The notes under the pieces were generated by a model, which was not told the origin of the DNA, did not search any database, and saw only the letters and a list, made by a program, of their open reading frames with translations. Shown one piece after another: positions 12,761-58,833 of a stretch of 64,000 bases of DNA. A program made the translations under genes and the position numbers. Position 1 is the stretch's first letter. Every line of letters begins with the position of its first letter. Origin of the DNA: an uncultured Planctomycetaceae bacterium (GTDB taxonomy: Bacteria; Planctomycetota; Planctomycetia; Planctomycetales; Planctomycetaceae); assembly GCA_963815195.1 (NCBI GenBank), contig CAWFGE010000009.1, positions 40,989 to 104,988 of the forward strand, read 5' to 3'.

Positions 12761-12788
12761 GAGCAACCTTTAAGCTCATCCGTCGAAG

Positions 12789-26779: not shown

Positions 26780-26874
26780 GGGCAGGCATCAGTCCCAGAA
26801 ACTAAGCCACTGGGCAGGCATTAAAACAAGGCCAAGCATACCAAACCGTCCCCGCGCTTTTTACATAGTATGTC
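26780..26874 (+). repeat. Composite repeat scar (B repeats + 46-bp C repeat with dif-like half-site)
   Basis: GGGCAGGCAT at 26780 and 26812; 26829-26874 matches 55735-55780 at 43/46 nt. Confidence 0.85.
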
Positions 26875-26880
26875 AATGGC

Positions 26881-27798
26881 CTAATCGCCTTGGGTTATCG
26901 CGAATAGTTTTCCTTCGCCGCAGCCGAGGTCGAGAACCGTACGGGCACCGCTGGCCCGGAGAGCAGCCATGACCGCTCCGTGGCGTTGATCGTTGAGACT
27001 CAACGGCATTTCCAACGACTCCTCTCGCTCGTCTGTCGCCGCTTGATCTTCGGTCGATTCAACATCTTCCTCCTCGACCAGCCGGGCCAGCGCCTGCCGG
27101 AACAGGCTGGATCGGTGCTTCAGGTAGCGGCGAGTGATTTGCTCCTTCTCCGGGTGCGAGGCCAACCAGCCGCCGCCCTTGGCCAGCAACTTTTCCAATT
27201 CGTCTTCGCCGACGAAATAATGCTTCTCGTTATCAAAGACCGGAATGAGGACATACAGGTGCGTCAGCAAATCGGAGAGCGTCTTCGTGCCGCTGATCGT
27301 GGCCGAGTAATAAGGACTTTCGCCCCACTCGGGAAATCGTTCATCGAGCGGATGCCCAACGGCTTCGACCGTGTAGCCCAGCGGCTCGAAGATTCGATGC
27401 AGGAAGTCTCTCGCCGCCACGGACTGGCAGGACATCAAACCGGCCGTCAGCGGAATCGGAGTCGTGACGAGTTCCGGTCGATCTTTGCAGCGTCCACCTA
27501 AAGCCGTGCCGAAGACCTGCGAGATCGCCACGCTCATGAAGGACGAGGCGACGTAGGGGCGGTCATTGACGTAATGGCCGAGCAGAAAACTCTGATCCCG
27601 CCCCCTTCGACGCACCATGCCCACCGGGTCCACGTCGAGCAACAAACAAGCCGTGCAGCGATCCTCTGTCGCCTCAGGGTAAAAAACGTGTGCCTGCCCG
27701 AAGCTCAAGTCGAAGCTCTGAAAGCGATCCGGGTGCTTGTGCAGCAGAAACCCAAGATCGGTGGCTGGGTTGTGTTCTGTGGAGATTGTGAGCAGCAT
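26881..27798 (-). pseudogene. hen1: 3' terminal RNA ribose 2'-O-methyltransferase Hen1, truncated in the MTase domain
   Basis: MLLTISTEHNPATDLGFLLHKHPDR..YVNDRPYVASSF..HLYVLIPVFDNEKHY is the bacterial Hen1 N-domain; ends right after SAM motif I (VLDLGCGEGKL). Confidence 0.85.
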
Positions 27799-27838
27799 TG
27801 GGCACTCGTATTCATCGTTTTTGGTGCTGAAGGCGGGC

Positions 27839-28968
27839 TTAATTATCTGTTTTTCCGTCGCTCATCACCAGACTATGACACTCCATCCACGTCGGCGGCT
27901 CGCATTTCTCGGCCAATTTGCGGATCGACTTGTTCGGGAACGGCCTTGCTTCGAGCTTTGTTTTGGCGAAGCAAGCTCTCGAACGGCGGTTCGAGGTAGA
28001 CAATCTCGATGCGGGCATTGTAATCGGCAAACAGGTCGAGCCAGCGGCCACGGGTCTGCCGCATCGTGTTCGTGGCGTTGAAGGCGAACGATGTTCCCGC
28101 CCGGAGCAACTCCCGGCAGCGTTCTCGTGGCAAGCTGGGCGACTTGCTCCTTGATTGTCGGTCGGCTCGACATCGAGTTCGCCACGGATGTCGTCCAGCG
28201 AAACGACGGGAAGTTCGGGTCGATTTCGTTCCAGCCAAGTGTTTTTCCCGCTGCCGGGCAAACCGGACATCACCGTCACGGTGCAGGAGAAGTCCTCATG
28301 CGGAACGTAGTGCAGGTTGGGTTCCCGCTGCCGAAAGAACGTGAAACGGGCATGGTCGGTGGCAAAGGGATACGGCTGATCGTAGCAACCGGATTCTTCG
28401 GCCATCAACTTCCAGAAGTGCAGATTCTCCTCGGGCCGAGTCATCGAGTCGGTGTCTCGGCCTCGGGTGTCCGCCAAAGCGAACAGATACAGCAGCCGAT
28501 TGTTGACCAGCCACGACAGCCGAACGACTTCGTGCGTCGGCTCGTCCCGTTCGAGCAGGAATGCCGGTCGTCCGTGATAACGAACCAGGCGGGCAATCTC
28601 CTCACGAGTCGTCAGGTCGCATCCCAGATCACGCAGGACCGCACGGGCGACGTGTTCTCCTTTGACGGCGTGCTTCGGGGAGCGAACTCGACCCGTTTCG
28701 GGGTCAACCTCCGTCGTCAGCGGCTTGGCGACATCGTGGAACAGAGCCGTAAAGATCAGGACGGTCTGCTCGTGCGAGTGTGAGCGACGGCCACTCTTCC
28801 AATTCGATCAGTTGCCCGAGGACCATCTTTGGTGTGGGTCCAGACATCGCCCTCGGAATGCCACTCGGCATCCTGAACGCAGTCCGCCATCGGCTGACAC
28901 CACGGCTGGCCTTCGGCCCAGGCGATGATATCCTCCAGGGATGCCTGTTTGAGTTCTTGCCAATTCAT
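27839..28968 (-). CDS. HD phosphohydrolase + P-loop (polynucleotide kinase-like) protein, frameshifted
   Basis: [24 protein letters not shown] (HD), [29 protein letters not shown]-coupled to the ligase gene. Confidence 0.8.
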
Positions 28969-29705
28969 GACCAAATATCCACACCCTCGGCGAGTCGGTT
29001 TGGCACCATCTGCTGATGTTGCCAGTGCGTGCTTTGCTTGATCTTTTCTACGAACTCCGGCCGCACAAATTTCGCCCGCCCGGTCACGACGCCCTCGGCT
29101 TCCGTCCGCAGATACAGCCCTTCCATCAGATTGTCGATTCGTTTGGTGGCCGGGTTCTCAAACTGGCTGTCGAATTGCGAAGGTCCGATCAACTCGTCGA
29201 GTTCACAGCGGTCGATGGAACCGGTGTGAATCACGGGTACGGTTTCGATCCCTGATCCTTCCAATAACCCCAACCGCTGCTCCAGATCAAGGAACGCCTC
29301 TTGCTGCTTATCGTAAATGTCGAACTCGAAAAAGTAATGAGTGAGTTGGCAGTAAAGAATCGAATGGCGGGCGTAGACCCACTCCCCGAACAGAATAAAC
29401 CGGTTTTCCAACCGTTCCTCCAAAACATACCGCTTCACCGCCGCCCATTGCTTGAAGAGATCGTACTGCGGATGCATCCCCTCGGTGACCAGATGGCCCC
29501 GGCATTGGAGGACCATTTGCCCCTCGTCGGAAAAATGGATGCCGACGTTCGTGCCATCGATTTTCTCCTCGACGATCAACGATTCATCAGCGATGAACGC
29601 TTTGGATTCCGCTTCGTCCAGATGTTTGTCGTCATCGGTCCCCTTCGAGCCAAACAAATGGGGCGTCCGGGGATATTTCACGAAATCTCCGTGTGAAGTG
29701 CCCAT
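28965..29705 (-). CDS. RNA ligase family nucleotidyltransferase
   Basis: [16 protein letters not shown] (motif I), ILFGEW, FEFDIYD, EGLYLR, AKFVR. Confidence 0.9.
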
Positions 29706-29740
29706 TGCAATACCCCTGAATTTGAGAAACTCATCCAAAC

Positions 29741-29783
29741 AAAAAAGCCCACCCGGTGAATTGCACAACCACACCGAGCGGGC
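29741..29783 (-). terminator. Intrinsic terminator/attenuator-like hairpin upstream of the ligase
   Basis: Minus strand GCCCGCTCGGTG..CACCGGGTGGGC followed by TTTTTT. Confidence 0.5.
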
Positions 29784-29827
29784 CTGAAATGCTCATTCCC
29801 TAAAAGTAGTGATGCCGGTTCACGCCG

Positions 29828-30220: not shown

Positions 30221-31217
<997 letters not shown>

Positions 31218-31586: not shown

Positions 31587-32147
31587 CTACTGTTGCTTCA
31601 TCGGGAGCGGTTTGAAGACCAGCCCTTTCAATCCCTTGGCCTCCACAGTTGCCCTGAAGCTATCGTCCACGAACAGTTCGGCCCCACTTTTTAGGGGCGT
31701 CTTAAAGATGTGCTTGCCGTCAAGCATGTCGTCCTTGAAACAGTATTTGAAAACCTCACTCACACGTCCCGTGGCCGCATTGCGTACAAGCTCTGACCGC
31801 TCCTCATCAAGGCAGTCAATGATGTCCATCACGTTGACGATGTAAAACTGTTGACCAGAGGGATGTTTTATGGGCAACGCTTCCGTGCAGTAGCCGATCA
31901 ACGGCTGTAGCACCTCCCAAGCTCTTTGGCTGAAGATGGGTATCTTGTTGTAGTTGCTCAGGCTCGGAAAGTCGCCTTCGATACCGGGATTGTCATCGAA
32001 GCCTTCCACCGCAACCGGCTCCCACGACCCACCGACCGACTTAGAGTCATAATGCAAGCCAACAACTGGCTCGTCATCCTGCATGATGAGTCGGACACCA
32101 TCATAGTGGTTTGCATCTGGACGGTATCGAAACCATTTCATCTTCAT
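31587..32147 (-). CDS. Imm11/DUF1629-like immunity protein
   Basis: GDFP..PIFSQRA..E.LPI..FYIVNV..IDCLDEERS..IFK..LFVDDSF..LKGLVF; directly downstream of the AHH toxin. Confidence 0.8.
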   Translation of the reverse strand: MKMKWFRYRPDANHYDGVRLIMQDDEPVVGLHYDSKSVGGSWEPVAVEGFDDNPGIEGDFPSLSNYNKIPIFSQRAWEVLQPLIGYCTEALPIKHPSGQQFYIVNVMDIIDCLDEERSELVRNAATGRVSEVFKYCFKDDMLDGKHIFKTPLKSGAELFVDDSFRATVEAKGLKGLVFKPLPMKQQ

Positions 32148-32180
32148 CGGTGCTGATCCTAGCGTATTGAGAAACCTCGA

Positions 32181-35100
32181 TCACGGGAAAGTCCCGTTCA
32201 GAATACCCTGCCGGATTCGTGCGAGTTCATCCAGCACCGCCTGCCTTCCAGTTGCCCAGTCGTCAATACCCCGAACGGCGTCACGCAACCTGTTGTTCAC
32301 AGCGTCGATGCCATCGTGCGTGTGCAAGACGCTGCCACGATGGTGTCGAGGCAACACGTTCTGCGGCGCACCACGACCGCCAACGAGGGACACACCGTTC
32401 TCTGCGGCGTTGATGTCGATCTGGTAACGGTCGAGGATGGCCCGACCAGGAGCAGCCCGAGTGTGCGTACCGGGTACGATGTGATGGGCGGCTTGCCCGG
32501 AACCGGGTTGGATGCCAAGTCTTTGCCCCAGAACCCCACTGTCAGCGGCACTCTGTCGCCACGCCGGGTTTGGAAGTGGTCGTGGAGCAAGAAGTTTCGG
32601 AGTGTTCCATACCGTTGCGAATTCCTTTGCTTGCTGTTCGGTCAGTTTTCGCCCAGGAAACACGGACTTTCCCGTATCATCCAGGAGTTCAAAAAAGCCT
32701 TTCAAGGGGCCTTCGGCGATTTCTTTATAAGTATACGCGTTATGGACCCAAACGGAAAAGCCCCAACTGCGGCTGCCGACGAAATACGTGTGGTCCTCGG
32801 CCACTCGCAAATTATACACGGTTTTCGTTTCGTTTGTTTCCTCAATTTCCGAAACGATCGTCAACGTGTTGTCCTGTCCAACCAGCGCATCGCCCGCCAT
32901 CAATTCCTTGGCACGAACCCAGCCGATTTGATGGACGAAAAAGGGATGCTCGGCGGTTGCCTGGATCAACTGACCACCTACACGAATATTCAAGACGGGC
33001 GATGACAGTTCGAACACAGCTTCCACTCGGCGGGAGATCACAGGTGCCTGAGGATCATTTTCCGCCCGAGACAAGACGCGGTCTCCAATCTGAAACGTCT
33101 CAATCGGTTGATCGCCCGTGGGCGTCAAGACGGGGGTGCCTGCGACGAAGCAGCGCTCCGCCAGGGCTCGAAGGGCGGGAGAGTGGATTGCCGTTTTTCC
33201 GACTCGAAGCAAGCCAATCGTCTGCGCAAGCACACCGCCTGCTCCCTCCATGATCAATGTTTCCGTCCAGAAGCCAACCTGCTCCTGTCGCCATTTTTCA
33301 TCTTCGGACAACGGGACTTTCACCCCCGGAGGGAGTCTCCATGCCGACTTGGCAAATGATCCAGAAAACGCACCCCCGGGCCTGTTTGGCACGGCTAGTT
33401 CATAGCGAATTGACTTCCGCGAAGTCGCCTCGGCAACAAGTTCTCTTTTGAGCCTCGATTCAAGTTCGTCTAGTCTAGCTTTATTAATCTCCCGAAGAGG
33501 GTCCTTTCCTTTATAGGCTTGAAAATGAGAACTGAAATCAGCGGCAGGAGTTTTGCCCTTGAGATCTTGAATTTTCGTTCTTAATTCGTATTTGATTTTG
33601 GCGTGCTGCCAAAGTTGTTCTCGATATTCGGAAGGAAGCGTCTCAAGGTCCTTTATATCAGCCAACAGTTGCAGAAGCGGAGCGTCCTGGATTTGTTGCT
33701 TACGTTGTTGAGCTTGCTTCATAACCGTAGTAGTAGACGAAACGAGTGAACTAGGACTGCTTCCTCCTGTTAAGCTACCTGGTCGAGAGTCTGGAATCAT
33801 TAATTCTGCGGCCGGGAAGAAAAATCGCATTATCCATACTGCCGGCTCATCATTAAGAGCCAATGCAGTTGCCGGGTCGAAGCCGTCCCTTTTTAGATCC
33901 GTCGCTTCGCCCTCGACATCGCTGGGCCTCGTATTGCTAGTATCATGCCGACCGAATCGCTCCCCGCCTTCGGGCATGTCTTCCCCGACGAGATAGCTGC
34001 GATCCGTCTCCGCATTCGTGCTGGAAACGTCAAAAACCTGGGAGTTCAAATCAGGGGCTGATTCGGGTTGTTCAGGATCGTCAACATCGGGCGGCAAAGT
34101 GACAGCAGGCGGGTCGGCTGAGTCGCTAGGTTTCGCCGTGGCGATTAGGCTGGCCGTGTTAATGGTGGTTGATGTCGAGAACGACGAGAGCACCGGGGCG
34201 TTCGGGTCGAAGGATTGGTAGAGGTTGACAGGCTGAATGCCCAGGCTGATGCCGGTTTGTTGACGGCCATATTCGCTTGTGAGGTACGTGCTCAAAGCAG
34301 AGTTTTGGCTGTTAAGCAGCGTGAGCTGGGCCCCAGTTTCGCTGTTGATCAAAGTCTCCCACGCATCCGCTTCGCTGGTGGTGAAGGTGACCTGTGCTGT
34401 GGTCTCGGTATTCAGCCGTGTATGGTCTGCGCCGTTTCTTGCGACCAGGAAGTTATATTCGGCCGAGCCTCTGGCACTGGCCTGCTTGGCCCAGGGAGTG
34501 CCGTCATTTGTGGCGAGGTTTGCTAGCTGCGTTTGCAGATTGCTTGATTGATTTTCATTGTAGCTCGCCAGATCGTCGGCGACGTCCATGAGCATCTGGC
34601 CGTAGGCCGTGGCGTCGGCAATTTCCGCATCGTGGATGGCGCTGGTGAGGGTTTGAACTTTCGTCACTTCGGCAGTGCCTGCGGTGCTGTCCAATGTGCT
34701 TTCTGCCGATTGGAGCGAGATGTCGCGCTGGCCCTCTGCACCGAGTTCGGCAAAGGCATAATCCCGAGCAGCGGCAAGTTTTGTGGCTTCAGATTCGTCG
34801 TTTGCCGTCGCGACAGCATTGTCGTAGGCCGTTTGGTCGCCATTCACCGTCAGATCACGTTCGGCGTGGGCGAGGGCGACTTTATGATCTCGTTTGGCGA
34901 CTGCGACGGCGTGTTGATACGTCTCTTCGGCGGCGGCGGACTGCTCGCCGTAGAGTTCCCAAGCTGCGGCATCGGCGTCGTCCCTCGCTTCGATGGCGGG
35001 GGCGACTGTTGTGATATAAGTTTGCTGGGCACCTGTGTCACTGGCAGCAAGGCTGGTTGTCTGACTTGCTACTAAGTTGTCATAAGTTGTCGTGGCGGTA

Positions 35101-38100
35101 TTAATATTCGTGGTTTCAGCTTCGTAGGCCGTTTCTACGTTTTGCCAGGCAGATTGTTCGGCGGTGGCTTGGCCGACTAGGAACGTTGTGTAGGGCAGGC
35201 TCGCAGTGTTGTTGAGGGTGGTCAGGCTCGTCAGGCGGGCATTATAGTCGCCGGTGAGGTAGGTTTCCTCGGCGGTGGCGCGGGTGGTGTTGAAGAGCGT
35301 GCGGGCTGTCGAGTCGGCGGTGATGCGGGTGGACTCGGCGGCGGCGATGCTGTTTTCGTAGGTGTTGTCGGTTGTGGTCTGGCTAGTGAGATAGGTGCGG
35401 TCGAGGCCGGCGATGCCGACGTCGTAGGTGTCTTCGGCGGCGGCCCAGGCGTCGGTTTCGGTCTTGTCGGCCAGGGCCTCGGCGTCGGTCCAGGTGACGT
35501 CGGCATCGGCCAGGTCGATGGTATAGTTCATCTCCGCATCGGCAAGATCGGCGGTGTGGCCGTGCTCGGCGGTCTGGAGGGCGGCGGAGTTGTCGCTGCC
35601 GTCGAAGACTTGCGCCTGGGCCAACGCGATCTGATAGTCCCGCTCGGCCGTGGCCCGCGCGATGCGGCGGGCCTTCTGCGCCTCGGCCCGGTCGATGTTT
35701 AGTTCCTTATCCGCCGTCGCCACATCCACATCCCATTGTTCGTCGGCATGAGTCGTGGCGGTGTCATAGGCTTGACTCAGACCTAGTTCGCCGGTGCGGT
35801 AGATTTCCGCGTTGGTCTCCGAGCCGGTCAGATAGGTCACATCCGCATCGGCGATGCTGCGGCTTTCTTCCTCCTGGTCATCGGTCAGGGCATTGTCTAG
35901 GTTCGCTTCGGCCTGGGCCATATTGGTTTGAAAGGTGTCAAATACTGAAGCGAGGCCGCTCATCCAATCGGCAACAATGTCCGCCTGATAGAGGCCGTTC
36001 ATAACCCCCTGAGAACTATCCGTACCGGCCAGGGTCTGATAGCGCGCTTGTTGGCCGCTACTCGTACCGGTAAGGTAGGTCGTCGCATCCGTAGCCAGCG
36101 CGGTGGATTCATTCACGAGCGGCGAAACCATCGCCAGGCTGTAGGCTTCATCGGCGTCGGCGAGGGAATTGACGTAGCTGCGGTTGGCGTTTGCGATGTC
36201 GAGGTTATAGGCGTTCTCCGCGGCGGCTTCGCTGTTTTCGTAGGCGGTGCCGGCGGTGTTATAGCTCGTGTCGTAGGCGTCCTCGTCGGCGTTCGAGCTA
36301 TTAATATAGACGATGCGGGCGGTGCCCACGGCGGTGGCATAGGCAATTTCGGCGTCGCCGTAGGCGGTTTCGCGGGCGATCAAAGCGTTGCCGATACTGG
36401 TGACGCGGGTGACGTTGGCGGTTTTGTCGGCGGCGTTTCGCTGATCCTCGGCAGCGGCGACGGCGGCGTCGTAAGCCGCCACGGATTCGGGGCTGTCCTG
36501 TTCGATGTACTTCTGAGCCACCGCGGGCATGACGGCGGCAACGTACTCCACGTTGGCTTGGGCGGCGGCGTTGTCGTAGACCCGGTGGGCATCCGCCAGG
36601 GCGACGGCATAGGTGCCGCGGGCATAGGCTTCGGACTCGGCCCGCGTCGCTGCGGCGGTCTCGGCGGCGATGTTGTAGACGCCGCGATCTGAGGTCAGGG
36701 CGATGCCATAGGTTTTGTTCGCGGCTTCCGTACTTGTGACAAACGCGATCTCGGCCGTGTTGTCACTTGTGACATAAGTGGTTTCGGCGGTGTCATCGGC
36801 CGCGGTCAAGGCGGCGTCGGCGGCGGAGAGGGCGGTCTGTTCGGCGGCGTCGGCGGTTTGCCAATCCGTCAGAAAATCCCGTTCGGCGGCGGCCGCGGCC
36901 GCCTGGTAACTCCTGAGAAGATTGGGCGGCAGGGCCCCGAGATCTGTGGCCTGGACGGTCCAGAGATCGACTTGAAACATATCGGCGGCATTCGTTCGCG
37001 ACTTCGCGGTCGTCATCGTCCGCGGCGGTCGCTTGGGCGTCGTAAGCCGTGTCCGCGGCGGTGGACTCTGTACGGAACGTCGTCTCGGCGGACTCGGCGG
37101 CATTGTTATACGCCTCATCGGCCGTGGCGGCGGTCGTTTCCCAGGCGTTCTCGGCATCGGCGACTTCCTGGGCGAAGAGAATCCGCGCCCCCTTGACGGC
37201 GGTCGCCAGGGTATTGGACGCCGTCGCCATGTCTTGGGCGTAGGTTACGTGATGGTTTCCCACGTTTTGGGTCCAGGTCAAGCGGCTTTGCGCGGCCGCG
37301 TTCGCCCGCGCGGTGTGGGCGGCGGCCTGGCTCACACGTTCCTGGTAATAGGCCGCATCGGATTCCGCCGCGTACTCCGTCGAATCGATGACATCCCATG
37401 CCAGATCATAATCGGCATCCGCAATGGCGCGTTCGCGGGTCCACAGTGCGGCGTTGATGGCATTTTGGAGGGTCTGCCGCCCGGCGGCGAGGTCGTCCTG
37501 GTAGGTCTTGTTTTCCGCGACCACGGCCTTGGTGTGGGTTTTCTCGGCGAGAGCGGCGGCGGTGGCGTAATCGTACTGCCGATTGGCCAGTGTGGTGAGA
37601 TACTCGGCCCGGTCGGCGGCGTCGGCGGTTTCTTCGGTGTAATCGGCCCCGGCCAAGGCCCCATCCAAAATGGTGCGGGCCGAGGTCAGCGATTGGATTT
37701 CGTTGATCTGGGCCTGACCGAAACTGGTCTCGAAGGTGCTGTCCGCCGTGGTTATGGCGGAGAGGTAGGCGGACTCGGCGCCGGCGAGATCGGACTGTAA
37801 GCCGCCCCAGGGCGTGGGGGTGCCGGTGTTGAAGGCGCTCACTCTCTGGGCGTAATCGCCGGCCACGCCGCTACGGAAGGTATTGCCGTCGGCGCTGGCA
37901 TTTTGGTTGAGGGCGACTTCGTCCTCGGCGATGTGGTCCTCAGCGGTTTCGCGGGCCGGGTCCACGGTGTCCTCGAACGTCTTGATCGCCCCGGCGAAGG
38001 AGTCGTCTCGCTCCAAGGCGGCATTGATGGCGGTGATGGTGGCATCTCGCCGGGCCGCCGCGAACGCGACATCGCGAGTGTACTGGGCATCCGCCGTGCG

Positions 38101-46737: not shown

Positions 46738-46760
46738 ATCCGGATACACCACCTGCCCGT

Positions 46761-46882: not shown

Positions 46883-47048
46883 CGGGCCGCTACTCGCGAA
46901 ACCAGTCTAACGAGTAGCGGAGGGCTACAGCATCGCGGGCCGCAGCGGGGAGTTTCCATTGACGCCAATAGAAACAAGGGAAGCCCGGCCGAGTGTGTGG
47001 CGACCGGGCTTCCGGGGGCGGCCTGCCGAGTCCAGGCCCCGATAAGCT

Positions 47049-47454: not shown

Positions 47455-47674
47455 CACTGGCTCCGCTTTTCGGGGATGTAGGTTCCCGCCGGGACTGTCT
47501 TGGTTTCGACTTCGATTTCGTGCTCGGCTGCATGACGACTCAACCGTCTTGGTTTCGACGACGATTTCCCCGCCGCCGACGGTGCGGGGGTTTCCTTCGC
47601 GGATCGTGACTTCCTGGTGATCTTTTTCGTTCATCGCGATGACCTCCAAAAAAGTATTGACGCCAATAGAAACT

Positions 47675-47862
47675 TACGTGAGCGGATCGTCAAAGCTGTT
47701 CACGCCGATCTCAACGAGAACCGACCGCAGGATGCGTTTCTTGGTTTCTGCCGATGTGGTGGAGTGGCTCCAGAGTTTCGTCAAGTCCGAACCCAATTCC
47801 AGCAATTGTTGCCGATTCTGATCGCTGAGAAAGATGATCTGGGACTCCGACTTGGCCATCTC
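47675..47862 (-). pseudogene. Internal fragment of a large serine recombinase C-terminal region
   Basis: LSDQNRQQLLELGSDLTKLWSHSTTSAETKKRILRSVLVEI; bounded by repeat B on one side and palindrome A on the other. Confidence 0.55.
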
Positions 47863-48178
47863 GTCCCAGGTCTCAGAAAATAAGCCACTGGGCAGGCATT
47901 TCGAAAAACAAAAGTGTAACGAAATGCTCCCACGATTGATACACTTGTCGGTTCGGTGAGATTGGCGGGTTCGGCACCCTTCGGTCGACCGACGGCCGAA
48001 GAATTCGAAACCGCCAAAACCAAACCAGAGAATCCCCCACATCCCGCCGAGTCCGCTGATTAGGCCGCTTCGGTGTCTCCAGGTTCATTGGCATCCCGCC
48101 CCGCTTCTATCCGCGCGTTCGCCGATTCTCTCTGCCAAAGAGTAAGAAGAAGAACCCCCGCAAAAATCCGATTCATCG

Positions 48179-48234
48179 GCGAAAACCCAGCGATTGGATA
48201 CCCGCGCGGCGGGGGCGGGGTCTGAGAAGGACCC
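48179..48234 (-). other. Lambda-type cos-like site
   Basis: GGGTCCT-23 nt ending in GCG-CGGGTATCCAAT-CGCTGGGTTTTCGC, compared with lambda GGGTCCT-23 nt ending in ACG-GGGCGGCGACCT-CGCGGGTTTTCGC. Confidence 0.55.
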
Positions 48235-48433
48235 GCGCTTGCTTCCGCTTCCACTGAGATGGGAAAAGAGGCTCTTGCCGAAGCAGCTTTCCGAAACCCA
48301 GCCATTTGGAAGGGTAACTGCGGCAATTTTTTGTTACCCGCCCCTGTTTTGCACGAAATTGACAAGGAGGCCTTGACTCATTTCGGGCTTTTCGACTGTT
48401 ATTGTCTAAGGCTTGTTTTCAAGGATTTTCGCC

Positions 48434-48773
48434 ATGACAGAGAACGCATTTGGAAGGGAATTGAGGACGAGCGGCCGATGTGACTCAGGCGGAGTTGGAT
48501 GAACAACTGAAGCGAGGCTCCGGCTTCACCAGCAGCGTGGAGAATGCCCGCTACAACGCCAAGTCAAATGGATGGCTCCGAGAGGCCCTGAAAATGCTCG
48601 ACGGCGAACGGGAACTGTCTGGAATGCTGGCTCTGTCGGCAGAAGATCAGCAGCGAATCGTAGGTAGATCGGATGAGCGAAGTCGTTCTCTCACTTCAGT
48701 GCCAGTTTGCAACAGGAATCGACCGAAAGCGATTGAGGAAATCGCACAAGCGGTTGGGAAAGGAACGGTATGA
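48434..48773 (+). CDS. XRE-type HTH regulator (frameshifted)
   Basis: MTENAFGRELR..|..TQAELDEQLKRGSGFTSSVENAR fits the Cro/CI HTH pattern. Confidence 0.45.
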
Positions 48774-49467
48774 TGCGATGAAATGCCGGCGAAGCGCTGG
48801 GCTAAATGTGAGTGACCCCTGCATCGTTGTCGCGATGAGGGGTCGGGGTTTGGGGCCTTGCGGCTCCCAATCGCGCCGGGGAGTTTAACCCTCTCCGGCG
48901 GGCAACGCAAGGCTCTTTCCAATTCTCCAAGGATGGAGATTTGTTGCCATGTATAGGCGATTCTGTTTCTTCGCGTTGGTCGCCATCGCTCTGCTTGGGC
49001 TTTGGCTTCGTCAAGGTGAAGCCGCTGCGTTGATTATTCAAATCCTCGTGCGGTTCATAACACGCTAAATTTCAAGCGGCGGAGATTCTGTGAATCTCCG
49101 CCGCGCTTCATTTGCCCAAAGCCCCGAAAAAAACGCGAGATTCTTTTTCCGGTGATTCCCAGCCGATGACGCCGTTGACACTGACAGTTTTGCAGGAAAG
49201 GATTTCCGACCATCAGCTATTGGCGCAAGGGAACGGCCAACCGCCAACCCGTGATGACCGGGCTGGCCGTGGGAACCCCGGCGGTTTGCCGGAATCTGCG
49301 CAACACCATCTTACGGACCAGTAACGCTTTTGGGAACGCGGTGAGCATTCCGAACGGTTGGGTCCCGATGTGCTGGCGGTTAACGTCATCTCGGAAATGA
49401 AAGCGGCGGCCGCCCAGACGCGGCCGTGGGACAGCTTGGCGGCCTGCCCTCTCACGGGTCCCCGACC

Positions 49468-49820
49468 ATCCGGATACACCACCTGCCCGTCGGGGGGCGG
49501 CCACGGCGCCCTGAGCCCGGCCTTGAGGACTATGCCACTGGGCGAGCAATGGCGTTTCCGTCGCCGCAGACGAAACCTTACTTTGTCCCAGTATCTAGGC
49601 CACCGGGCAGGCTTGAACTTTTCGCTGGTCCAGCGTGCGGTCCCAGTATCGGTCCCATTATCCAAGCCACTGGGCAGGCGTTGAAACCCTCCGGTCGAGC
49701 ACGGCTGCGTGTCTCTCGACGAGTTGTCCCAGCGTCTAGGCCACTGGGCAGGCATTGTGCGCCCCAGTATTCAGGCCACTGGGCAAGCATTGTACTAAAG
49801 CAAAAGTATAACGAACCGCC
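49468..49820 (+). repeat. Cluster of B repeats preceded by the 23-bp D repeat
   Basis: CCCAG-N11-C[TC]GGGCA[GA]GC copies at about 49586, 49652, 49727 and 49762; 49468-49490 is identical to 46738-46760. Confidence 0.85.
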
Positions 49821-49967
49821 GCTGCAGCGGGGGGCTACAGCGGGGAGCCCAGGTCATGTTGAATGGTCGCGCGGCTTTCGGGTTTGACTTTTCCAGAACC
49901 CGAAAGTACCATAGGGCTCTTAAGGTCCATAAGGTCCAAATCCTGACAAACGAACTCGGAGGACGCC

Positions 49968-50162
49968 ATGAAAAAAAAGGGTAAAAATCAAGCAAGCCCA
50001 ACTCGCCTGATTAAGTTCCACGTTTCGCCGCAGGAGCAGGACATCATACGGCTGGCCGCAGCGCTCAAGCGGACATCAATGGCCGACTTTGCTCGCCTGA
50101 TTGTCCTGGACGAGGCCTTGCGCCTGACAAAAGGCGTCAGCCTGCCGGACCCGGAAAGCTAA
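49968..50162 (+). CDS. Ribbon-helix-helix protein (DUF1778/TacA-like)
   Basis: IKFHVSPQEQDIIRLAAALKRTSMADFARLIVLDEA; GGAGG RBS. Confidence 0.75.
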   Translation: MKKKGKNQASPTRLIKFHVSPQEQDIIRLAAALKRTSMADFARLIVLDEALRLTKGVSLPDPES

Positions 50163-50217
50163 CGAGTTTCTATTGGCGTCAATGGAAACTCACCCCTCTA
50201 ACCCCAAGGAGCGAAAA

Positions 50218-50801: not shown

Positions 50802-50843
50802 ATTGCCCTAGACTCTGCGGGCGAAATCCGGACTATATAGTGT

Positions 50844-52901
50844 ATGACTCGCAGGCATTGGAGCCCGCGAAAAAAAAGAAACCCCAGCCGGTTTGCGACG
50901 GCGGCTGGGGCTTCAGGCGATTTTTCGACTCCCGTCCAGGAAGCTAATAGTATGGTAACTAGCAGATCACGCAACGGCAACCCCAATCGCGGCCGCGCCG
51001 CGGAAAATGGCCACGCCCCCCGAAACCGCCTGTCGCGGCCGGCAGCCCCGCCCGAACCCGAACCCAACCCTCGGCTGGTCGCCGCCCTTCCTGACGGGCG
51101 CCGCCGGATAATCAGACCCGCGCGAGTCCGGGGCTCCGACGCGATCCCCGCGAACTGCCGCAGCATCACGATCCATGACCTGCCCGACTGGCCCGACGAC
51201 GCCGTCGGCGACATGCTAGTCCTGGTGCACGACCTGGGCCGCCCGATCTACGTAGATGCCGGGCAGGAGCGCTATCCGGACGTATTCGCCGCGGCCCTCG
51301 CGGCGCTGGTGGGCCCATCAGCGGACCCCACACGATATACCCGCTCCTGTCACGCCGCCCTGATGGCCGGGGCGATCGCGCATCCCGAATCCGCCGAAGC
51401 GGCATATAACCAGATCGCGGCCCGGCTGCGGGCGTTGGGCGATTCCCGAACACACACGCAGTTAGTCGCATTTCTGCGACAGGCGGGGGGCGCGTTGTTC
51501 GCGGGCGGCGAATCGCGCGAAATGACGCTGAAGGCGTGGGCGGAGAGCTATCTGGCCAGCCTGCCCCAGCCCACCGCCGCGGAGGAAATCGAGACCGGGG
51601 CGCCGCCGCCGCCGCTGATATATTACCAGGACGGGTATTATGCACGGCAAAATAATAGGTATCGCGAAGCCCCCAAAAAGGAGGTTAAGGCAACTGTTAC
51701 CCGTCACGCGCAGTCACGGCCCGGCGGGGACAAGCTGGCCGATGGGACGATACGCAGCATCATGACCCATTTGGACGGCCTAACTGTGCTGCCCAGCCAG
51801 TCGCTGGATTTCCCGCTGTGGGTCGAGGCCTGGCCGGATCGGGTATCACGCTCGCCATATCTCGCTATGGCCAATGGCCTACTCGACCTGCAGGCACTGC
51901 TGGACGGCCGGGAGGAGCCCCTCCGGACTCACAGCTCGCGGCACTTCTCGCCGACGATCCTGCCCTACGAGTTCAACCCCCGGGCGGGCTGTCCCATATG
52001 GCGACGGACGCTGGCGAGGATCCTCCCGCGACGGGGCGATGGGGACCTCCGACGACCTATATTACAGCAGTTTTTCGGCTGGTGCTTGGCCGGCCCGTTA
52101 CTTCCCGATTACCAAAAATTTTTAGTGTTGTTTGGCGAAGCGGGATCCGGAAAGGGAACCTGTCTGCGCGTTTTGGACGCTCTGGTCGGCAAGGACAATC
52201 TGTCGCATGTGACCCCGGCCGAGCTGGAAGAAAAATTCGGGATGGAATCGCTCTCCGGAAAACTCGTGAACTCGGCGGGCGATATTGGTGAGCACATCTC
52301 GAAAAAAGCAGAAAGCCGCCTCAAGGCGCTGACGGGCAGCGATGCCATGACCATCGCCCGAAAATGGCGCACCGACGCGATCCTACTACCCGAGAGCCGT
52401 CCCCGCCTGGCCTTCGCCGCGAACGCCATGCCGAGGTTCGAGGACCGCAGCAGCGGAACATGGCGACGGCTGATTGCGATGCCGTTTTTGAACCCGATCG
52501 CGGCCGAGGACCGTGACGTGCAGCGCGATGACGACCTGCGCGCCGAACTGCCAGGAATCTTCAATTGGGCGATTCGCGGGGCGCGACTGCTGAGCTACCA
52601 GGGGGCGTTTCCAAGCTGCGAACTCTGCCAGGCGGCGCTGGATGAGCACCGGCTACACTCGGATCCGCTCCGCCAATGGGTGGAGGCTCGCGTGATACTC
52701 GACCCCGCTGGTCGCGCGTGGGTCGATGCTGCCTATCGCGACTACCGCGACTGGTGCGCTGAGAGCGGCTATCGCGCGCTCGGAAAATCAGAATTCGGAC
52801 GGCAAATCGGAAAAATCGACAACGTCGAAAGACGCTATCCCAGGGTCGGCGGATCCCGGCAATACCAGTACTGGGGACTGCGGTTGGCGGAGGGGCGATG
52901 A
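50844..52901 (+). CDS. Phage/plasmid P4-family (D5-like) SF3 helicase
   Basis: AMANGLLDL..H..HFS..LPYEFNP.A.CP.W (D5_N); FLVLFGEAGSGKGT Walker A; AANAMP; WRRL; C-terminal Y..WC..G. Start may be 50951. Confidence 0.9.
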   Translation: MTRRHWSPRKKRNPSRFATAAGASGDFSTPVQEANSMVTSRSRNGNPNRGRAAENGHAPRNRLSRPAAPPEPEPNPRLVAALPDGRRRIIRPARVRGSDAIPANCRSITIHDLPDWPDDAVGDMLVLVHDLGRPIYVDAGQERYPDVFAAALAALVGPSADPTRYTRSCHAALMAGAIAHPESAEAAYNQIAARLRALGDSRTHTQLVAFLRQAGGALFAGGESREMTLKAWAESYLASLPQPTAAEEIETGAPPPPLIYYQDGYYARQNNRYREAPKKEVKATVTRHAQSRPGGDKLADGTIRSIMTHLDGLTVLPSQSLDFPLWVEAWPDRVSRSPYLAMANGLLDLQALLDGREEPLRTHSSRHFSPTILPYEFNPRAGCPIWRRTLARILPRRGDGDLRRPILQQFFGWCLAGPLLPDYQKFLVLFGEAGSGKGTCLRVLDALVGKDNLSHVTPAELEEKFGMESLSGKLVNSAGDIGEHISKKAESRLKALTGSDAMTIARKWRTDAILLPESRPRLAFAANAMPRFEDRSSGTWRRLIAMPFLNPIAAEDRDVQRDDDLRAELPGIFNWAIRGARLLSYQGAFPSCELCQAALDEHRLHSDPLRQWVEARVILDPAGRAWVDAAYRDYRDWCAESGYRALGKSEFGRQIGKIDNVERRYPRVGGSRQYQYWGLRLAEGR
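50870..50910 (-). terminator. Intrinsic terminator-like hairpin
   Basis: CCCCAGCCG-11 nt-CGGCTGGGG with a T-tract on the minus strand. Confidence 0.5.
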
Positions 52902-52909
52902 TCGGCGCG

Positions 52910-53298
52910 GATCCCGCACCGATCTAGCACCAGATCTAGCACCAGATCCCGCACCAGATCCCGCACCAGACCCCAACTCTGACGCGACGATGAATCTGAA
53001 ACGTGAAAAAAGGATCAAAATGATGTACAACGTTCACCTAAAATGGTGCGGGTGGTGCTAGATCGGTGCTAGATCTGGTGCTAGATCTACCTCGACCAAA
53101 CGCTAGAAATATAGGGGTGGTGCTAGTGGTGCTAGTGGATTCCCTATTAAGTTGCGTATAGGGAAATTTTTTGAGGGAAAAAAAAACGAAAAGAAAAACA
53201 ATATCCAGATCCACTAGCACCACCCGCACCACCCCTATATTTCTAGCGTTTCAGAGGGGGGGGGATCTAGCACCAGATCTAGCACCACCCGCACCACC
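52910..53298. repeat. Candidate replication origin: iterons + long inverted repeat around an AT-rich spacer
   Basis: Five tandem GATC[TA/CC]GCACCA units at 52910-52970; inverted arms about 53044-53140 and 53208-53298 flanking an A-rich core. Confidence 0.75.
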
Positions 53299-53349
53299 CC
53301 CTCACTCCATCAGCTTTCATCAACAATTTTCAACACTCAGAGGCCATAA

Positions 53350-54457
53350 ATGAAACCTTTAAATCCGCAGCTATTTAAGCTTCTTCAACTGCATTTTCAG
53401 ACTGTTTTGGTCTCCAACGACGGCTGCGGCTCTGACCTGATCCGCAGACCCATTCGGGGCAGACGGCAAGGCCCGGTGGAGCGCCGAGATCGCCAATCCC
53501 AGTTCCGGTGAGCAGTACCGGGTCAACTGCCCATTTTGCAACGACGTGACGCAGCGGCTCTACATTCACCACCGTTACGGGTCGCGTGACGAGAAAACGG
53601 GCAGTGATTTTCGGGGGCTCATTTATTGCTTCAACGAAGAATGCCACGAAGAGGTAGCCAACCGCGACCAGCTACATGAGATGATTTTTTCGCGGGCTTC
53701 GTGGCGGGGGGCTCCCAGCGCTACCCAGATTCAGCCGGGCCGTCCTGAGGGGCCCGCGTCCCCGCCGCCAGAAATAAAGTATCCAGGTGCCACAATCCGC
53801 CTGGACAAGCTCGCGAAAACCCACCCCGATCATCCCGCGATTCTGTATCTGGAGGGGCGTGGGTTCGACCCCGGGATGTTGGGCCGGTTTTGGGATGTGC
53901 GCTACTGCCCCACGAAATACTCAAACCGGATCATCATACCGATGCATAAGCAAAAAGCGGGCAAAAAAACGCTGGTGGGATGGCAGGCGAGATACATCGG
54001 CGATCCCCCGCCGAACGTGCCAAAATATCTCACCTGCCCGGGAATGCGCCGCAACCGGGAAGCCTACAATTTCGGCCCGGCTGTCCGTCGCCAGACCATT
54101 GCCATTGTCGAGGGCCCTACCGATGTGTGGCGTTTTGGGCCCCAAGCGATGGGACTTTGGGGCAAGACGATGAGCGAGTTTTTGCGGCAACGGCTTGTTA
54201 AAACGCTCCTACGCCATAGCGACCAGACCGTCGTAGTGCTATTTGACCCCAATCAAAATCCAAAAGAAAAAGACAAAGGGAAGCTGCATCATATCGAGCG
54301 GCTAGTGTTCGATCTTTCCGCCGAGTTGCAACGCGCCGAGGCTTCGCCGGCAAAGAGTTTTTGGAGTTCACCTGCCGGAGGAGCTAGATCCCGGCTCGAT
54401 GGAGCGGGAGTCACTTTGGCGAGCGGTCCAGCGAGAGGCCGACATTTTGGGGCTTGA
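53350..54457 (+). CDS. DnaG-type primase (Zn finger + TOPRIM), frameshifted
   Basis: YRVNCPFCND..LYIHH..YCFNEEC; YLEGRG; RIIIP..GWQAR..PKYL; IVEGPTDVW; VLFD. Confidence 0.75.
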
Positions 54458-54573
54458 CGTTAGTTTCGGCAAAGCGTCGCTACGAAAAAAGAAAAAGGTA
54501 TAGTTCTCATTGGCGTCAATGGAAACTCGGCCGCATCGCGCGGCCAGGACGATGTTTACTTTTTAGGAGAAGC

Positions 54574-54852
54574 ATGGACATGCGAAACGAAATCCAACCG
54601 ACCTCAGTCCCGTTTCCGCAAGGCTGGGACTCAGGCACCCCCCAAGAACGCCGCAGACAGATGCTCGCGGATGGCCGGCGCGAACTGTTGACGTTGCTGA
54701 GTCATGGCCCATTGCCTAGGCATCGGCTAGAGGCCAGTACTTCAATGACTGCCAATCGTCTCGATAGGGTTCTGAGGCGGCTGATTGTCGAAGGCAGCAT
54801 CGAACTGGCCACCAACGACGAAGGCGTCGAAATCTGTCGCCTCGTGGAATAG
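54574..54852 (+). CDS. Small winged-helix protein
   Basis: AGGAG RBS; LLTLLSHGPLPRHRLEASTSMTANRLDRVLRRLIVEGSIE; bracketed by palindromes A5 and A6. Confidence 0.6.
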   Translation: MDMRNEIQPTSVPFPQGWDSGTPQERRRQMLADGRRELLTLLSHGPLPRHRLEASTSMTANRLDRVLRRLIVEGSIELATNDEGVEICRLVE

Positions 54853-55670
54853 TTTCCATTGGCGTCAATGGAAACTCCGTTGGCCTATGCTCCACAGTCT
54901 GCTCTGCCTTTCTCGAACTGACGCATTCGATCGGATAGCGAGGCGGGCCGGGATCATCCGGCCCATGCCTCCAGGCCTTTCGGCATACATTCGCCGTCCG
55001 CGCCTTGGAGACCTGTCAAGCGGAAAGGAAGAAATCACCCGCCACATGCTCGCCCTGGACACGTATCTGGATAATCTCCAACATTGATCCGCTGAGTCGC
55101 CCAAACTTCATGGGTGTTCTCGGCGAGTTCGTTTCATTCACTGGAGGAGGGCGAAGTGACGTTTCGGTGCGAGGATTATCGGTGGGCCGACGCCTGCGGA
55201 CGATGACGCTCCCGGCTTGCGCGGGCGGCCGAGGCGATGCGGCGGGTTTTGATCGACCATGCCCGCCAAGACGTCGCCGGAAATTGCCGGCGGATCGAGG
55301 CGGACGATTTCGCGGTCCAGACGACCGCCGCCCCGCTGTCCACATTATCTCGCCATATCATCTATTTATTCCGTCTTCACTATTTTCTCTGACTCTTGCA
55401 GCGAGCTCCAATTTTCGGCTCAAATCGATCGCATTAAGAGGGCCGAACTCCGCTTTTTCGCCATTGGGGCGTGTCCTTGCCCCGCCAGCAGCCCCCAAGA
55501 GGTCCAGATGACTCAGGGGTCGGCTTCGGAAAATGGCTCGCCACGAGGCCGCCCTGAGCGTGGGCCAGTTTCGTGACCTGCCCGCTCACAGGCTCCTGGC
55601 CATCTAAGCCACCAGGGCCCCTGGGCGGGCGTAGAGTTTCCATTGGCGTCAATGGAAACTTCGGATCCAG

Positions 55671-55780
55671 GTCCCGGAAACCAAGCCACCGGGCAGGCAT
55701 TGCAATCCCGTTCGCTGGGGTTGTCCCAGTATCCAGGCCAAGTATAACAAACTGTCCCCGCGCTTTTTACATAGTATGTC
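55671..55780 (+). repeat. Composite B + C repeat (second dif-like half-site)
   Basis: GTCCCGG-AAACCAAGCCA-CCGGGCAGGCATT, then ..GTCCCCGCGCTTTTTACATAGTATGTC identical to 26848-26874. Confidence 0.85.
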
Positions 55781-56937
55781 CCGAGCACCTCATCCAAAAA
55801 ACACGCCGATTCTTCCAAAACTCTCACGTACAGTCGCCGCGCTTGCTCCCAATCCCCCACTTGGGCTTGTCGATAGGCTCGTAGTTCCGTTTCGTTCTTC
55901 ACAAACCGGCCAGGCTTGAGCAATTGGCCCAGTCGGTTTACCACGCGCTGGGTTTCTTCCGGCAGTTGCTCAAGGGAAACCTTTTCCAAAAGGCGGTCGT
56001 GTCGAAGTTCCGCTTGCTCCCACAGGTTGAGATCCAAAAGCACTTCCAATTGCCGTGTTTCCGCTTCGACCTCGATCCAATCGATCGAACTCCCCAATTT
56101 AGCGGCCTGCTCCAACAACGTCAGGGCTTGTTGTAGTCGCCCGTAGCGATGAGCCGCACTTCCCAACAGCAGGCACGCCTCTGCTTGCCGAACCGGATCC
56201 TTCAGTGAAGTGGCCGTCTCGAAAGCCGCTCGCCAACAGTTTTGGGCTTTGTTTAAATCTCCGCCGCGATCCCAGGCCCGGCCTTCATCACAATACAGCA
56301 CAAACAGATTCACAGGGTCATGAGATAGCCTCTCCCTGCAGTCCTTCAGTTCGGCTTGGAGGGGCTGCACTTCGCCCATCAACAGCCGCAGGCGAAGATA
56401 ACGCAAGAAAAACATGGGTTGGTCGCGGAGACTGTCGAGATGAGATTCGGCGATTTGTCTTTGAATTTGGGCCTGGGGCAAATCTTCTTGACGCAAATAG
56501 GTCTCCGCAGCCAACAAAGCCAATCGGCAACTTAGCACTGGCGGAAGCTCTTCGTGGAATGGCAAAAGCGGTTCAAAACGCTCGATCGCTTGACTCAATC
56601 GACCAGCTAACAGCGAAACTTGCCCCGCCAAATAGCGGGCGCGAAACCACGGATTACTCGCAATCCCTCTAATCGAAGGGTCCCGTACCGCCGCTTTGCG
56701 AAGATATGCCTGCGCTGTTTCTTCCGCGACGGCAAGATCGCCCCGGTCGAGCGCTGCATCCACTTGCGTTTCTAATCTGAGCCACTCGGTTTCCACACTC
56801 GCCTCTTTGAATCCTTGGCTCGCGGGGTGAAGTTGAGGAGAAGTTGCGTGGGCGCTTGGACAATCTATTTTATAGAGTTTATCTGTCATAGAGAAGGTTG
56901 CCCAGTTGGGAGGAATAGTGGTCCTTAATGCATCCAT
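55781..56937 (-). pseudogene. TPR-repeat protein, 3'-truncated at the C repeat
   Basis: Helical TPR-like repeats (GRAWDRGGDLNKAQNCW, LLGSAAHRYGRLQQAL); the frame runs into the repeat sequence (GTYYVKSAG). Confidence 0.6.
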
Positions 56938-57279
56938 TTCAAAAATGGATCGTCTTCCTCTTTCTTTAGACAGCCAACATCGGTTTCACTTCCGATACAA
57001 CGCCTTTCATCCATCAAACGCCAAGAGGAATGGGCATTCCTGACCCGCACGACTGGCGACCACACCGTTACCATAGGCTTAAAATCTGGTTCTTGGCCGC
57101 CAAGACCCGCCCGATTTGCTCCTCTAAGCGGACTTGGGAGTTCTCCAAGCGGCTCCGTTCCCCGGAAAGCCGGTTTTTGACCGACCGCCGGATGCGATCG
57201 TCCAGGCCGCGAAACCGCGTCTCGTAAATCTGCATGTGCCTCGGAATCGAAACTGGCGTCCTGCATAAAGTCTGGACAA

Positions 57280-57530
57280 ACCTCTTCGTATTTCACGCTC
57301 CGCCACAGCCGCTCGATGAATACGTTGTCCAAGGCCCGTCCCTTTCCATCCATACTGATCGCGACATTCCGCAGTAAATAAGGGTAAATCTTGTGTCCGC
57401 GTCCCGGTTGGGTCGTGCGGCGTTTCGGTCCAACCGCTTCGATTCCCATCTGCCGCATCAGCCGCTGCACTCGCTTGCGATTCACGCCGAACAACTCGGC
57501 CATCTTGCGAGAACCATAAAACGGATGCCG
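57280..57530 (-). mobile_element. IS3-family transposase remnant with internal deletion
   Basis: HPFYGSRKMA..VNRKRVQRLMRQMGIEA..HKIYPYLLRNVAI joined to SMDGKGRALDNVFIERLWRSVKYEEV. Confidence 0.8.
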
Positions 57531-58833
57531 CGTTCTCCGCCGGCCGTGAACTGGGGTTTCCACCAGGCCTGGATTTCGGCTCGCCCGCCGCCCGGCCATC
57601 CTCCATTCAAATAGACTTCCCAAGTCGGAACCGAATATCCTTCCAGGGGTTCTATAACGAAGTTTTGGGGAGACCACTTCTCATTCCCCCGCGGCGTGAT
57701 CTCGATCCGCACATCCTCAGGAGGATTCACCGCCTCGCCTCGGCTGAATTTCACAGGTCCGGCTTTTTGTTCTATAAAGCCATGATCGAGCGACAGAATG
57801 AAGCGAGCCTCCCCGGGCCCGGTCTCATCAACCTGCTGACACACGAGTTCCCGCGGAAAAGGAAGTGGATTCGTGGAAGAGTCTACATTCCGTCGATTCG
57901 GAAGCGTTCCCGCCGGGCCGAGAACTTGGGCCGCCCGGCTGTCGGTCTGAGGATAGGGAACATGCAGAAGGTTCCCGCCCTCCAACTGAAACGCAATTTT
58001 CTCACCGCCCACCAATTTGACGTAGCGGGTCGGGCTTGTTGGAAAGCCGACTTCATATTCCCCGGAGGAAGATTTTGAACCGGCTCGCCGAGGTTTTGCT
58101 TGGAAGAGAACGGCGGCTGATCGCGCTTTACGGTGTAACCGCGAGGGCGACCTGAATTGGTGAAGCGTTTTCGCGAGATCCTTCCTTTGCTTTTCATGTT
58201 GACGATCGTGATCTCCGCGGCGATCCTGGGGTTCTCCGATCGGTATCGGGGAGATTCCATTGGCGTCAATGGAATCTGGGATCCGGCCGCAGGGTGCAGA
58301 AGCCCAGAGGTCGTGGGGACATGGTCCCGGCTCGGGCAATATCGTTCCCCGATGACCGTTCTTCCCTCGTTTGTTGAAGCGGGCGACGCCGAGACTTCGA
58401 AACCTTGAAACTTGAGTTTCGGAGAACCCAATTTGATCCGGAAGCCGCAGAAAACTGCTTGCATCTCAGTCTGTACGCAGGCACAATACATCCACGGCGG
58501 CTCTTATGTGAGCCGGTCGACCATGTTCCTGAATTGAAAGCTGGTAGGAGAATTAACCGCCTCGACAAGAGGCTTCCAACAATTTGAACGACGCGTAGCG
58601 TCAAGCCTGCTTCCCAGAAAACCGCCAACCTGAGCCGTGAGGCTCTTGAACATCAGAAGCAGCACCTTGAGCCGCGCCCCTTGAAAAAGGGGCGCTGGCC
58701 ATGTGCTGTTCTGATGTGCCTCTTGGCGGAGGTTCTGGGAGCGGTCGTGGTTCAGCGTCCTTTTTCTTTTGGACGCACCGAACTGAGCCCAATCCAAAGT
58801 AAAAAACAAACTTCAATCAAATGAGGGCCTCTG

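Follow-up and report, generated by a model that had tools for sequence, protein, structure and literature searches.

A planctomycete locus with a replicative, packaging-gene-free mobile element and lineage-specific repeats near breakpoints

What kind of mobile DNA leaves behind a replication module, pieces of recombinase genes and families of short repeats among truncated genes? The question is raised by a stretch of 64,000 nucleotides from an uncultured Planctomycetaceae bacterium (GCA_963815195.1, contig CAWFGE010000009.1), hereafter the window, which covers positions 40989-104988 of contig C9 in a source genome of 8.9 Mb and 25 contigs. Coordinates without a contig name are window positions, and C7, C8 and C10-C21 are other contigs of the source genome. 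Relatives of the window proteins are named as Planctomycetota. An initial annotation read about 31 kb of the window as one satellite-like element without an intact integrase, in which four short sequence families (A-D) may act to capture or delete host genes. The evidence supports a replicative mobile element that lacks packaging genes and has lineage-specific repeats near breakpoints. We hold with moderate confidence that the region at 46.2-55.8 kb is a pile of decayed, tandem, tRNA-targeting replicative integrative elements whose modules were exchanged at palindrome A, as with the PeSL joints of phages.

Family matches and iterons bore out most of the replicon described initially, namely a D5 helicase, a candidate origin, a TOPRIM primase, and RHH and wHTH genes (Table 1). 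The third regulator, an XRE-like open reading frame (ORF), was recognised by eye and had no Pfam or PHROG match. The reported lack of capsid and terminase genes also held, as none of these families was found among the 34 ORFs of the window and C17 elements, and PADLOC gave no credible defence match for 16 proteins. Frameshifts are frequent in the window, many of a single base (the primase has two), so a broken frame is by itself no proof of decay. The replication genes are interchangeable between elements, with primase relatives in 9 of 250 family genomes. The tandem of D5 helicase and primase recurs in 3 of 15 fetched loci of other genomes, where integrases differ or are missing and motifs A-D do not occur. 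Helicase scans brought up a single distant locus in metagenomes and no relative among genome contigs. The primase profile matched 49 loci in viral contigs, many of them 150-230 kb long, and 21 of these carry a homolog of the helicase of a sister element on C17, directly upstream of the primase in the 12 matches listed. None of the 49 had the D5 helicase, the integrase or A. Phage contigs of up to 230 kb (L187-L209) with a helicase-primase pair related to the C17 helicase and the window primase are a candidate donor or helper family. Additionally, primase relatives in three other planctomycete islands (L169, L170, L171) are fused to, or then followed by, a DNA polymerase gene.

The C-terminal tail of a tyrosine integrase in the window belongs to a family of at least 286 members, and intact relatives with a full recombinase were found. 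The sister element on C17 consists of a tRNA-Val 3' fragment, a 502-aa tyrosine integrase, two XRE genes and a phage-type DnaB-like helicase, followed by A, D, A, three B copies and C. Its near-intact part lies at a tRNA-Val(TAC) fragment (L001:4130-10200; C17 370130-376200). C11 carries the intact tRNA matching this fragment, and a single island may thus have one of its ends at the end of C17 and the other at the start of C11; we found no overlap between the contigs. A second full integrase, the outside protein record P0005 (508 aa), resembles the window tail over its last 50 residues. For this and other outside records (P0004, P0030, P0123, P0127, P0129, P0134, P0138) a shared contig was deduced from equal contig size. 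On this basis, a contig of 59,024 bp would hold integrase P0005, helicase P0123 (90% identical), wHTH P0134 (identical) and P0138, an intact form of the 135-aa cargo gene; one of 53,697 bp integrase P0004 and intact primase P0127; and one of 8,024 bp integrase P0030 and RHH P0129. Over window 46772-47451 a short-read contig matches at 97%; in place of D and the oxidoreductase piece of the window it has 123 other letters, which is what an intact integrase running on at this point would give.

Among 77 genome loci of this integrase family, a tRNA-Val lies within 1 kb upstream in three and different tRNAs lie at others; no tRNA was found near the integrase in 59 of 78 sequences scanned. Arm-like repeats flank the C17 tRNA-Val fragment and the C11 tRNA and occur in 2 of 47 loci, and are hence not family-wide. 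The integrase profile had no match in viral contigs, and three same-genus genomes have in common with the element only insertion sequence (IS), ECF-like and island scraps. In one locus an array of 26 tRNAs stands 7.5 kb downstream of a family integrase (L039:19014-21519), and a 1.3-kb block, 96% identical, is tRNA-proximal in two tRNA-Val islands (C10 29612-30926, C11 17787-19091).

Motifs B, C and D, proposed initially as independent shuffling signals alongside A, turned out to be parts of one non-coding block of about 0.9 kb. The full block, at C17 377421-378285, has the order X-D-A-B-B-B-C, where X is a further segment. The window holds five remnants of it, all on one strand (that around the isolated D spans 46738-46772; for the others see Table 1). 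Tandem accumulation with later deletions would explain this common direction better than separate insertions would. The short-read joints 55518->49451 and 49689->55671 join two remnants in C17 block order, and the order B-A-X is also found in the outside protein record P0189, a read-through. A strict B pattern was confined to C9 and C17, and a looser one added 12 isolated matches. A DNA search for the block in 250 family genomes, of low sensitivity since two candidates were scored per genome, gave nothing longer than matches of 22-47 bp, in 16 genomes. The block was rejected as a protein gene, since reading frames differ among copies and no family matched; as a structured RNA it gave folding z scores of -2.8 (C17 copy) and +0.3 (window copy).

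B and D could also be read as the degenerate remains of a CRISPR mini-array and its anti-repeat, carried by the element as a source of guide or anti-CRISPR RNA. The 36 nt of B start with GT, include a 5-bp stem and in the best copies end in GAAAC; neighbouring B copies are in places 67-74 bp apart, and two halves of B have their complement in D. These likenesses are set against a lack of B matches in host arrays, in 400 phylum genomes and in viral contigs, of a Cas12f/TnpB domain in the source genome, of spacer targets beyond the sister copy, and of an Rfam match, while B folded no better than shuffles. We consider a CRISPR origin very unlikely.

C ends at the identical base in all three of its copies, with unrelated flanks. 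It adjoins Hen1-linked DNA, a TPR-CHAT gene that breaks off near residue 360 of 900 and, on C17, a multi-copy IS-like gene. The initial annotation took C for a dif-like site at which a satellite without an intact integrase may borrow host XerCD, and the AT-rich composition of C, its fixed end base, the three truncated genes beside it and the absence of packaging genes among 34 ORFs suit that model. It does not suit the model that relatives carry full, tRNA-targeting tyrosine integrases of their own. Moreover, C was found in the source genome in three copies, all in the block, with no partner arm in their flanks. In the parts of the source drawn on here, dif prediction had failed for Planctomycetes (PMC3025954), and a dif-like pattern gave 14 matches in five near-complete family genomes vs 28 in the control, no excess. 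The dif identity of C is thus unsupported, and we find a single XerCD-dependent element that captures genes by four signals highly improbable. C was also rejected as the end of a RIT element, and the likeness of the linker before C to the pMV158 nick site was too weak, with about nine matching bases beyond the nick and no match on the MobM-binding side (PMC5863519, in the passages concerned).

Palindrome A has the 28-bp consensus GAGTTTCCATT-GGCGTC-AATGGAAACTC. The eight copies counted at first are seven full ones and a partial eighth at 47648, beside seven B (plus partials), two C and two D, and 20 shuffles of the window gave no such motif. A scan of the source genome found 12 A copies at 43-50 bits, the next matches being at 22.6 and 21.4 bits and the maximum of a reversed-genome control at 16.6. 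The 12 copies fall in four loci, C9 (7), C10 (2), C11 (1) and C17 (2); three of the four are beside tRNA-Val sequences, and the C10 and C11 copies lie about 200 bp from intact tRNA-Val genes. The motifs are thus confined to a few island loci and are not genome-wide REP-like repeats. No resolvase-family, Y1 transposase or TnpB gene accompanies A at its loci, and a REP/RAYT system was rejected because 12 copies occupy just four loci and a Y1 gene is distant (25 kb from the C11 copy) or absent (C9, C10 and C17). Under a strict test, 4 of 13 A copies have a stop codon at their start, compared with 22 of 600 random positions; a fifth copy overlaps the stop of the frameshifted primase, and a ribosome-binding site follows several copies. 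The central CG is invariant in 14 copies. Of 300 family genomes other than the source genome, one has A, within a 125-bp direct repeat bounding 13 kb. In the repeats of that genome (G160:C198; L026:14267-14390 and L027:7421-7545), which bound host-like genes, A has differing centres. A degenerate A of 24 bits (control maximum 16.6) lies 57 bp past a related integrase in L040, and the A pattern had no exact match in viral or metagenome contigs.

Some of these features raise the possibility that A is a site-specific recombination site, of 11-6-11 tyrosine or 12-2-12 serine type, in integron-like cassettes that a recombinase of the element or of the host would move. Each promoterless gene would start with a ribosome-binding site behind one A and finish at a stop codon inside the following A. 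A has 28-bp symmetry around its invariant CG, and three direct units are bounded by A: the wHTH gene (54528-54850), the replicon (50191-54501) and 47648-46950. Flank switching between A copies, a record that combines an identical (100%) wHTH protein with a 90% identical helicase, an RIT fragment that begins inside A, and the degenerate copy in L040 point the same way. On the other side stand the lack of a resolvase-family gene in A loci, a family integrase with its own tRNA core and arm-like repeats, about 70 ends of family integrases with no common palindrome downstream, and a centre that varies at two positions, which would hinder exchange with a 6-bp overlap. We regard such a site as doubtful, and we give no better chance to a second, integron-like layer in which a specific recombinase swaps promoterless A-bounded modules and the block, with its base-exact C end, drives one-ended joining to host genes.

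A could instead be merely a terminator, an RNA-end hairpin or an operator, and breakpoints near motifs the result of passive decay in repeat-rich DNA. Its folding z score of -6.2, a position between convergent gene ends, and motif-free gene scraps of a similar kind on C15 fit this account, as does the junction test. For that test, 19 junctions were picked by hand and set by donor homology, excluding internal block deletions. Seven lay within 15 bp of a motif vs a background of 16% (p 0.023, range 0.02-0.04), and 12 had no motif within that distance. The enrichment expected at truncated-gene junctions was thus found and is modest; the test is generous, because remnants of a motif-rich block tend to end near a motif. 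The reported nearness of motifs to breakpoints applies to those seven junctions and not to the remaining 12, and the homology of Hen1 ends about 25 bp from C, not at it. Against passive decay stand A copies that are nearly alike behind unrelated genes, flanks shared on one side only and a C end that falls on one exact base in 3 of 3 copies; we judge it unlikely.

Crossovers at A draw support from three pairs of A copies that have one flank in common, no pair having both (scores 8-10; null 99th percentile 4.5). Several observations weigh against a pile of tandem integrative elements with such crossovers. One null score reaches 9.5, so single scores of 8-10 are within chance. Departures from pairing in A favour G.U on the sense strand by 8 to 1, with a compensatory pair in one copy, and the bias stems from two distinct changes only. 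A lacks a U-tract and its centre hardly varies (11 of 14), which suits protein recognition more than a plain terminator. Its absence from 299 of 300 family genomes makes a thin comparative base, the co-location of genes in outside records is deduced from equal contig size, and no tRNA or arm-type remnant was found near the window integrase tail. Among the read contigs listed, none bridges a motif junction. Together with the many single-base frameshifts, this last point is what an assembly artefact would predict. We consider an artefact extremely improbable: motif copies differ, the B-A-X order recurs in P0189, and read contigs run across two junctions that have no motif (49115-49219 and 55070). 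The read runs (X1-X3, with word shares of 0.24, 0.06 and 0.00) belong to a single study, perhaps with the source population among them, and so are not independent.

The Imm11 gene, the TPR gene and an ORF at 58834 did not cluster with proteins of contigs holding intact relatives, and C15 259359-260358 carries a second, scrambled set of Hen1 and PNK scraps, 85-89% identical to the window, without any motif; these observations lend no support to a single element of 31 kb that takes up toxin and RNA-repair genes. Downstream of toxin A, window 6797-17629 contains repeated HINT-bearing toxin C-terminal cassettes in blocks that are 79-88% identical, resembling polymorphic-toxin orphan arrays. The stretch described initially as a cos-like site of the element is non-coding, about 120 bp long and kept in five copies across two genomes, and belongs to a different island family; copies at L005:9970-10220, L006:9690-9870, L114 and L115 are in integrase-excisionase-helicase islands. 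Its cos identity is a presumed resemblance. Of the two recombinase tails reported, that of the tyrosine integrase stands, and the serine recombinase piece is an internal fragment. For the 135-aa cargo gene, the nearest named Atlas clusters were Arr and PARP-type ADP-ribosyltransferases (0.92, low recognition; a lead only), and a single-sequence fold model of P0138 was unusable (pLDDT 43). The labels RIT, IS3 (scraps at 57278..57533), ISKra4 and oxidoreductase are those that we take to apply.

Table 1. Features of the window, by position
Feature	Position	Strand	Remarks
'Toxin A', cadherin/Ig-repeat region of polymorphic antibacterial toxin gene, 5' end cut	23268..26780	-	Pfam; host-island DNA, not shown as element part
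Block 3' remnant (partial B, full B, linker, C)	26781..26874	+	91% over 82 bp to C17 378204-378285
Hen1, cut after about residue 299 of 462	26881..27798	-	~25 bp from C
RNA-repair locus: broken AAA_33/PNK-like gene and RNA ligase	27839..29774	-	
Imm11 immunity gene and repeat-HINT-AHH nuclease 'toxin B'	31587..45437	-	Several frames; passenger DNA
A copy 1	46208..46235	+	
Large oxidoreductase-type gene fragment (presumed label)	46514..46738	+	blastx E 4e-5 to 1042-aa ORF on C12
Motif D, isolated block piece	46738..46760	+	
Tyrosine integrase, C-terminal ~40 codons	46760..46882	+	82% to P0005 residues 459-508; 51% to C17 integrase
A copy 2	46950..46977	-	Between convergent 3' ends of integrase tail and 135-aa cargo gene
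135-aa cargo gene (intact form P0138)	47049..47456	-	Weak ADP-ribosyltransferase-like lead
A copy 3, partial	47648..47675	-	21.4 bits; starts at stop codon, then ribosome-binding site and ATG 47634
Large serine recombinase, internal fragment	47684..47858	-	83% to three copies on C14, C19, C21
Block remnant (B start, B, linker)	47863..47923	+	
Second-island-family remnant with 'cos-like' stretch ~48120-48240	47982..49341	+	Family of tRNA-Cys and tRNA-Thr islands on C8, C7
Broken XRE-like ORF	48480-48773		Within second-island remnant; recognised by eye
Block remnant (segment X end, D, four B copies, linker; no C)	49433..49816	+	
Sigma-70-like promoter match and RHH gene (49968-50162)	49884..50162	+	RHH NikA-like, E 5e-4
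A copy 4	50164..50191	+	One base past RHH stop
D5/P4-family superfamily-3 helicase	50844..52901	+	TIGR01613 E 5e-44; cluster mate P0123 90% identical
Candidate replication origin	52921..53299	.	14 eight-base iterons, two facing sets around AT-rich core
Zn-finger/TOPRIM DnaG-like primase	53350..54503	+	Two frameshifts vs intact 384-aa cluster mate
A copy 5	54501..54528	+	Overlaps primase stop
wHTH gene, A copy on either side	54574..54852	+	Atlas lead
A copy 6	54850..54877	+	Overlaps wHTH stop
RIT-type (three-recombinase) tyrosine recombinase fragment (presumed label)	54870..55070	+	Starts inside A right arm; 79% to C14 11199-11000
Block remnant (segment X, A 55634, B 55671, partial B, C 55754-55780)	55370..55780	+	
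A copy 7	55634		Inside 55370..55780 block remnant
TPR-CHAT protein (~900 aa), first ~360 codons	55781..56889	-	Cut 4-10 codons from C
Multi-copy insertion sequence scraps (HTH_21)	57278..57533	-	Ends without motif
A copy 8	58251..58278	+	

We suggest that two or more related integrative elements came to lie in tandem and then decayed. The intact form would have had an inward-facing tyrosine integrase by a tRNA site (tRNA-Val here), small regulators and a phage-derived replication module, with no packaging genes. Excision and integration by its own integrase, to which the anatomy of the C17 sister attests, probably operated in the window as well. Replication may have started from the iteron origin, and travel was probably in helper-phage particles or vesicles. 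A, a lineage-specific 28-bp stem-loop at gene ends, most likely acts at the RNA or protein-binding level. Because its copies are nearly identical, A may also serve as a crossover point for module swaps by short-homology recombination, like the PeSL motifs of T4-type phages. The block (B, D, C) would mark the far end of the element, with C as a sharp end from which neighbouring DNA was deleted or joined. Adjacent toxin, RNA-repair and TPR genes would then be victims of rearrangements and are not proven cargo.

Among known systems, the element works like a tycheposon or a minimal satellite and, on the features tested, fails membership of phage-inducible chromosomal islands (PICI), their minimalist form (PICMI), integrative mobile elements exploiting Xer (IMEX), integrons and CRISPR. 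No cas-linked repeat match and no cognate effector were found for a CRISPR mini-array. Integron cassettes have a ribosome-binding site after attC and a stop codon in the next site, as for A. The conserved triplets of A run in the opposite order to what we take to be the attC layout, and A is only 28 bp. Integron membership was rejected, as the integrase P0001 had no NCBIfam (IntI) match and A lacks that presumed layout. In the passages cited, pdif modules of Acinetobacter (PMC6449649) and IMEX are alike in that 28-bp sites bound gene modules; A differs in its self-symmetry, and as 299 of 300 family genomes lack it, it is unlikely to be the host dif; C and A occur in elements only, and the element has its own integrase. 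Membership of the IMEX/pdif group was rejected since relatives carry integrases, whereas that group has none of its own.

The type C PICI and PICMI, in the parts of the sources considered (PMC10085698, PMC10803314), share with the element an integrase, a small regulator and a DUF5906 primase-helicase, with no structural genes. The element differs in having no AlpA/MerR/Stl match, TerS or capsid gene or fis site, and in a separate DnaG-like primase related to large phages. Measured against the PICI model of SatelliteFinder, an integrase is present (as a tail in the window and complete in the C17 sister and outside records), as is a primase-replicase module (DUF5906/D5 and DnaG-like). PICI membership was rejected, as the regulators are RHH and wHTH in the window and XRE on C17 with no AlpA/MerR/Stl, and the 34 ORFs include no small terminase or capsid-morphogenesis gene. 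PICMI have int, alpA and a primase at fis; here alpA is lacking and the sister sits at tRNA-Val. The portions of the SatelliteFinder paper at hand make no mention of Planctomycetota, and a narrow literature search found no planctomycete phage satellite with integrase and primase, nor non-integron palindromic cassettes with pdif.

The tycheposons of Prochlorococcus, as portrayed in passages of their description (bioRxiv 10.1101/2020.12.28.424599), are alike in the inward tRNA-targeting tyrosine integrase, the small swappable replication module, the mostly absent packaging genes and island-building. They belong to a different phylum, and those passages mention no repeated palindromic joints. The C17 sister has the tycheposon layout of an inward integrase by a tRNA fragment plus a replication module, and the attachment end of the window is lost. 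In the PeSL promoter/stem-loop cassettes of T4-type phages, by the sections used (PMC2839356), intergenic stem-loops likewise bound small ORFs and recombination between copies shuffles modules. A differs in being a palindrome of 28 bp that has no promoter of its own and belongs to an integrative element. Planctomycete mobile elements are little described. Here a single type of integrase is paired with replication genes that can be exchanged, and relatives of these genes are neighbours in large phage contigs, a pointer to possible helpers. If A were a recombinase site, the locus would represent a non-integron cassette system with a 28-bp substrate; if not, it would be a decayed island with PeSL-like joints.

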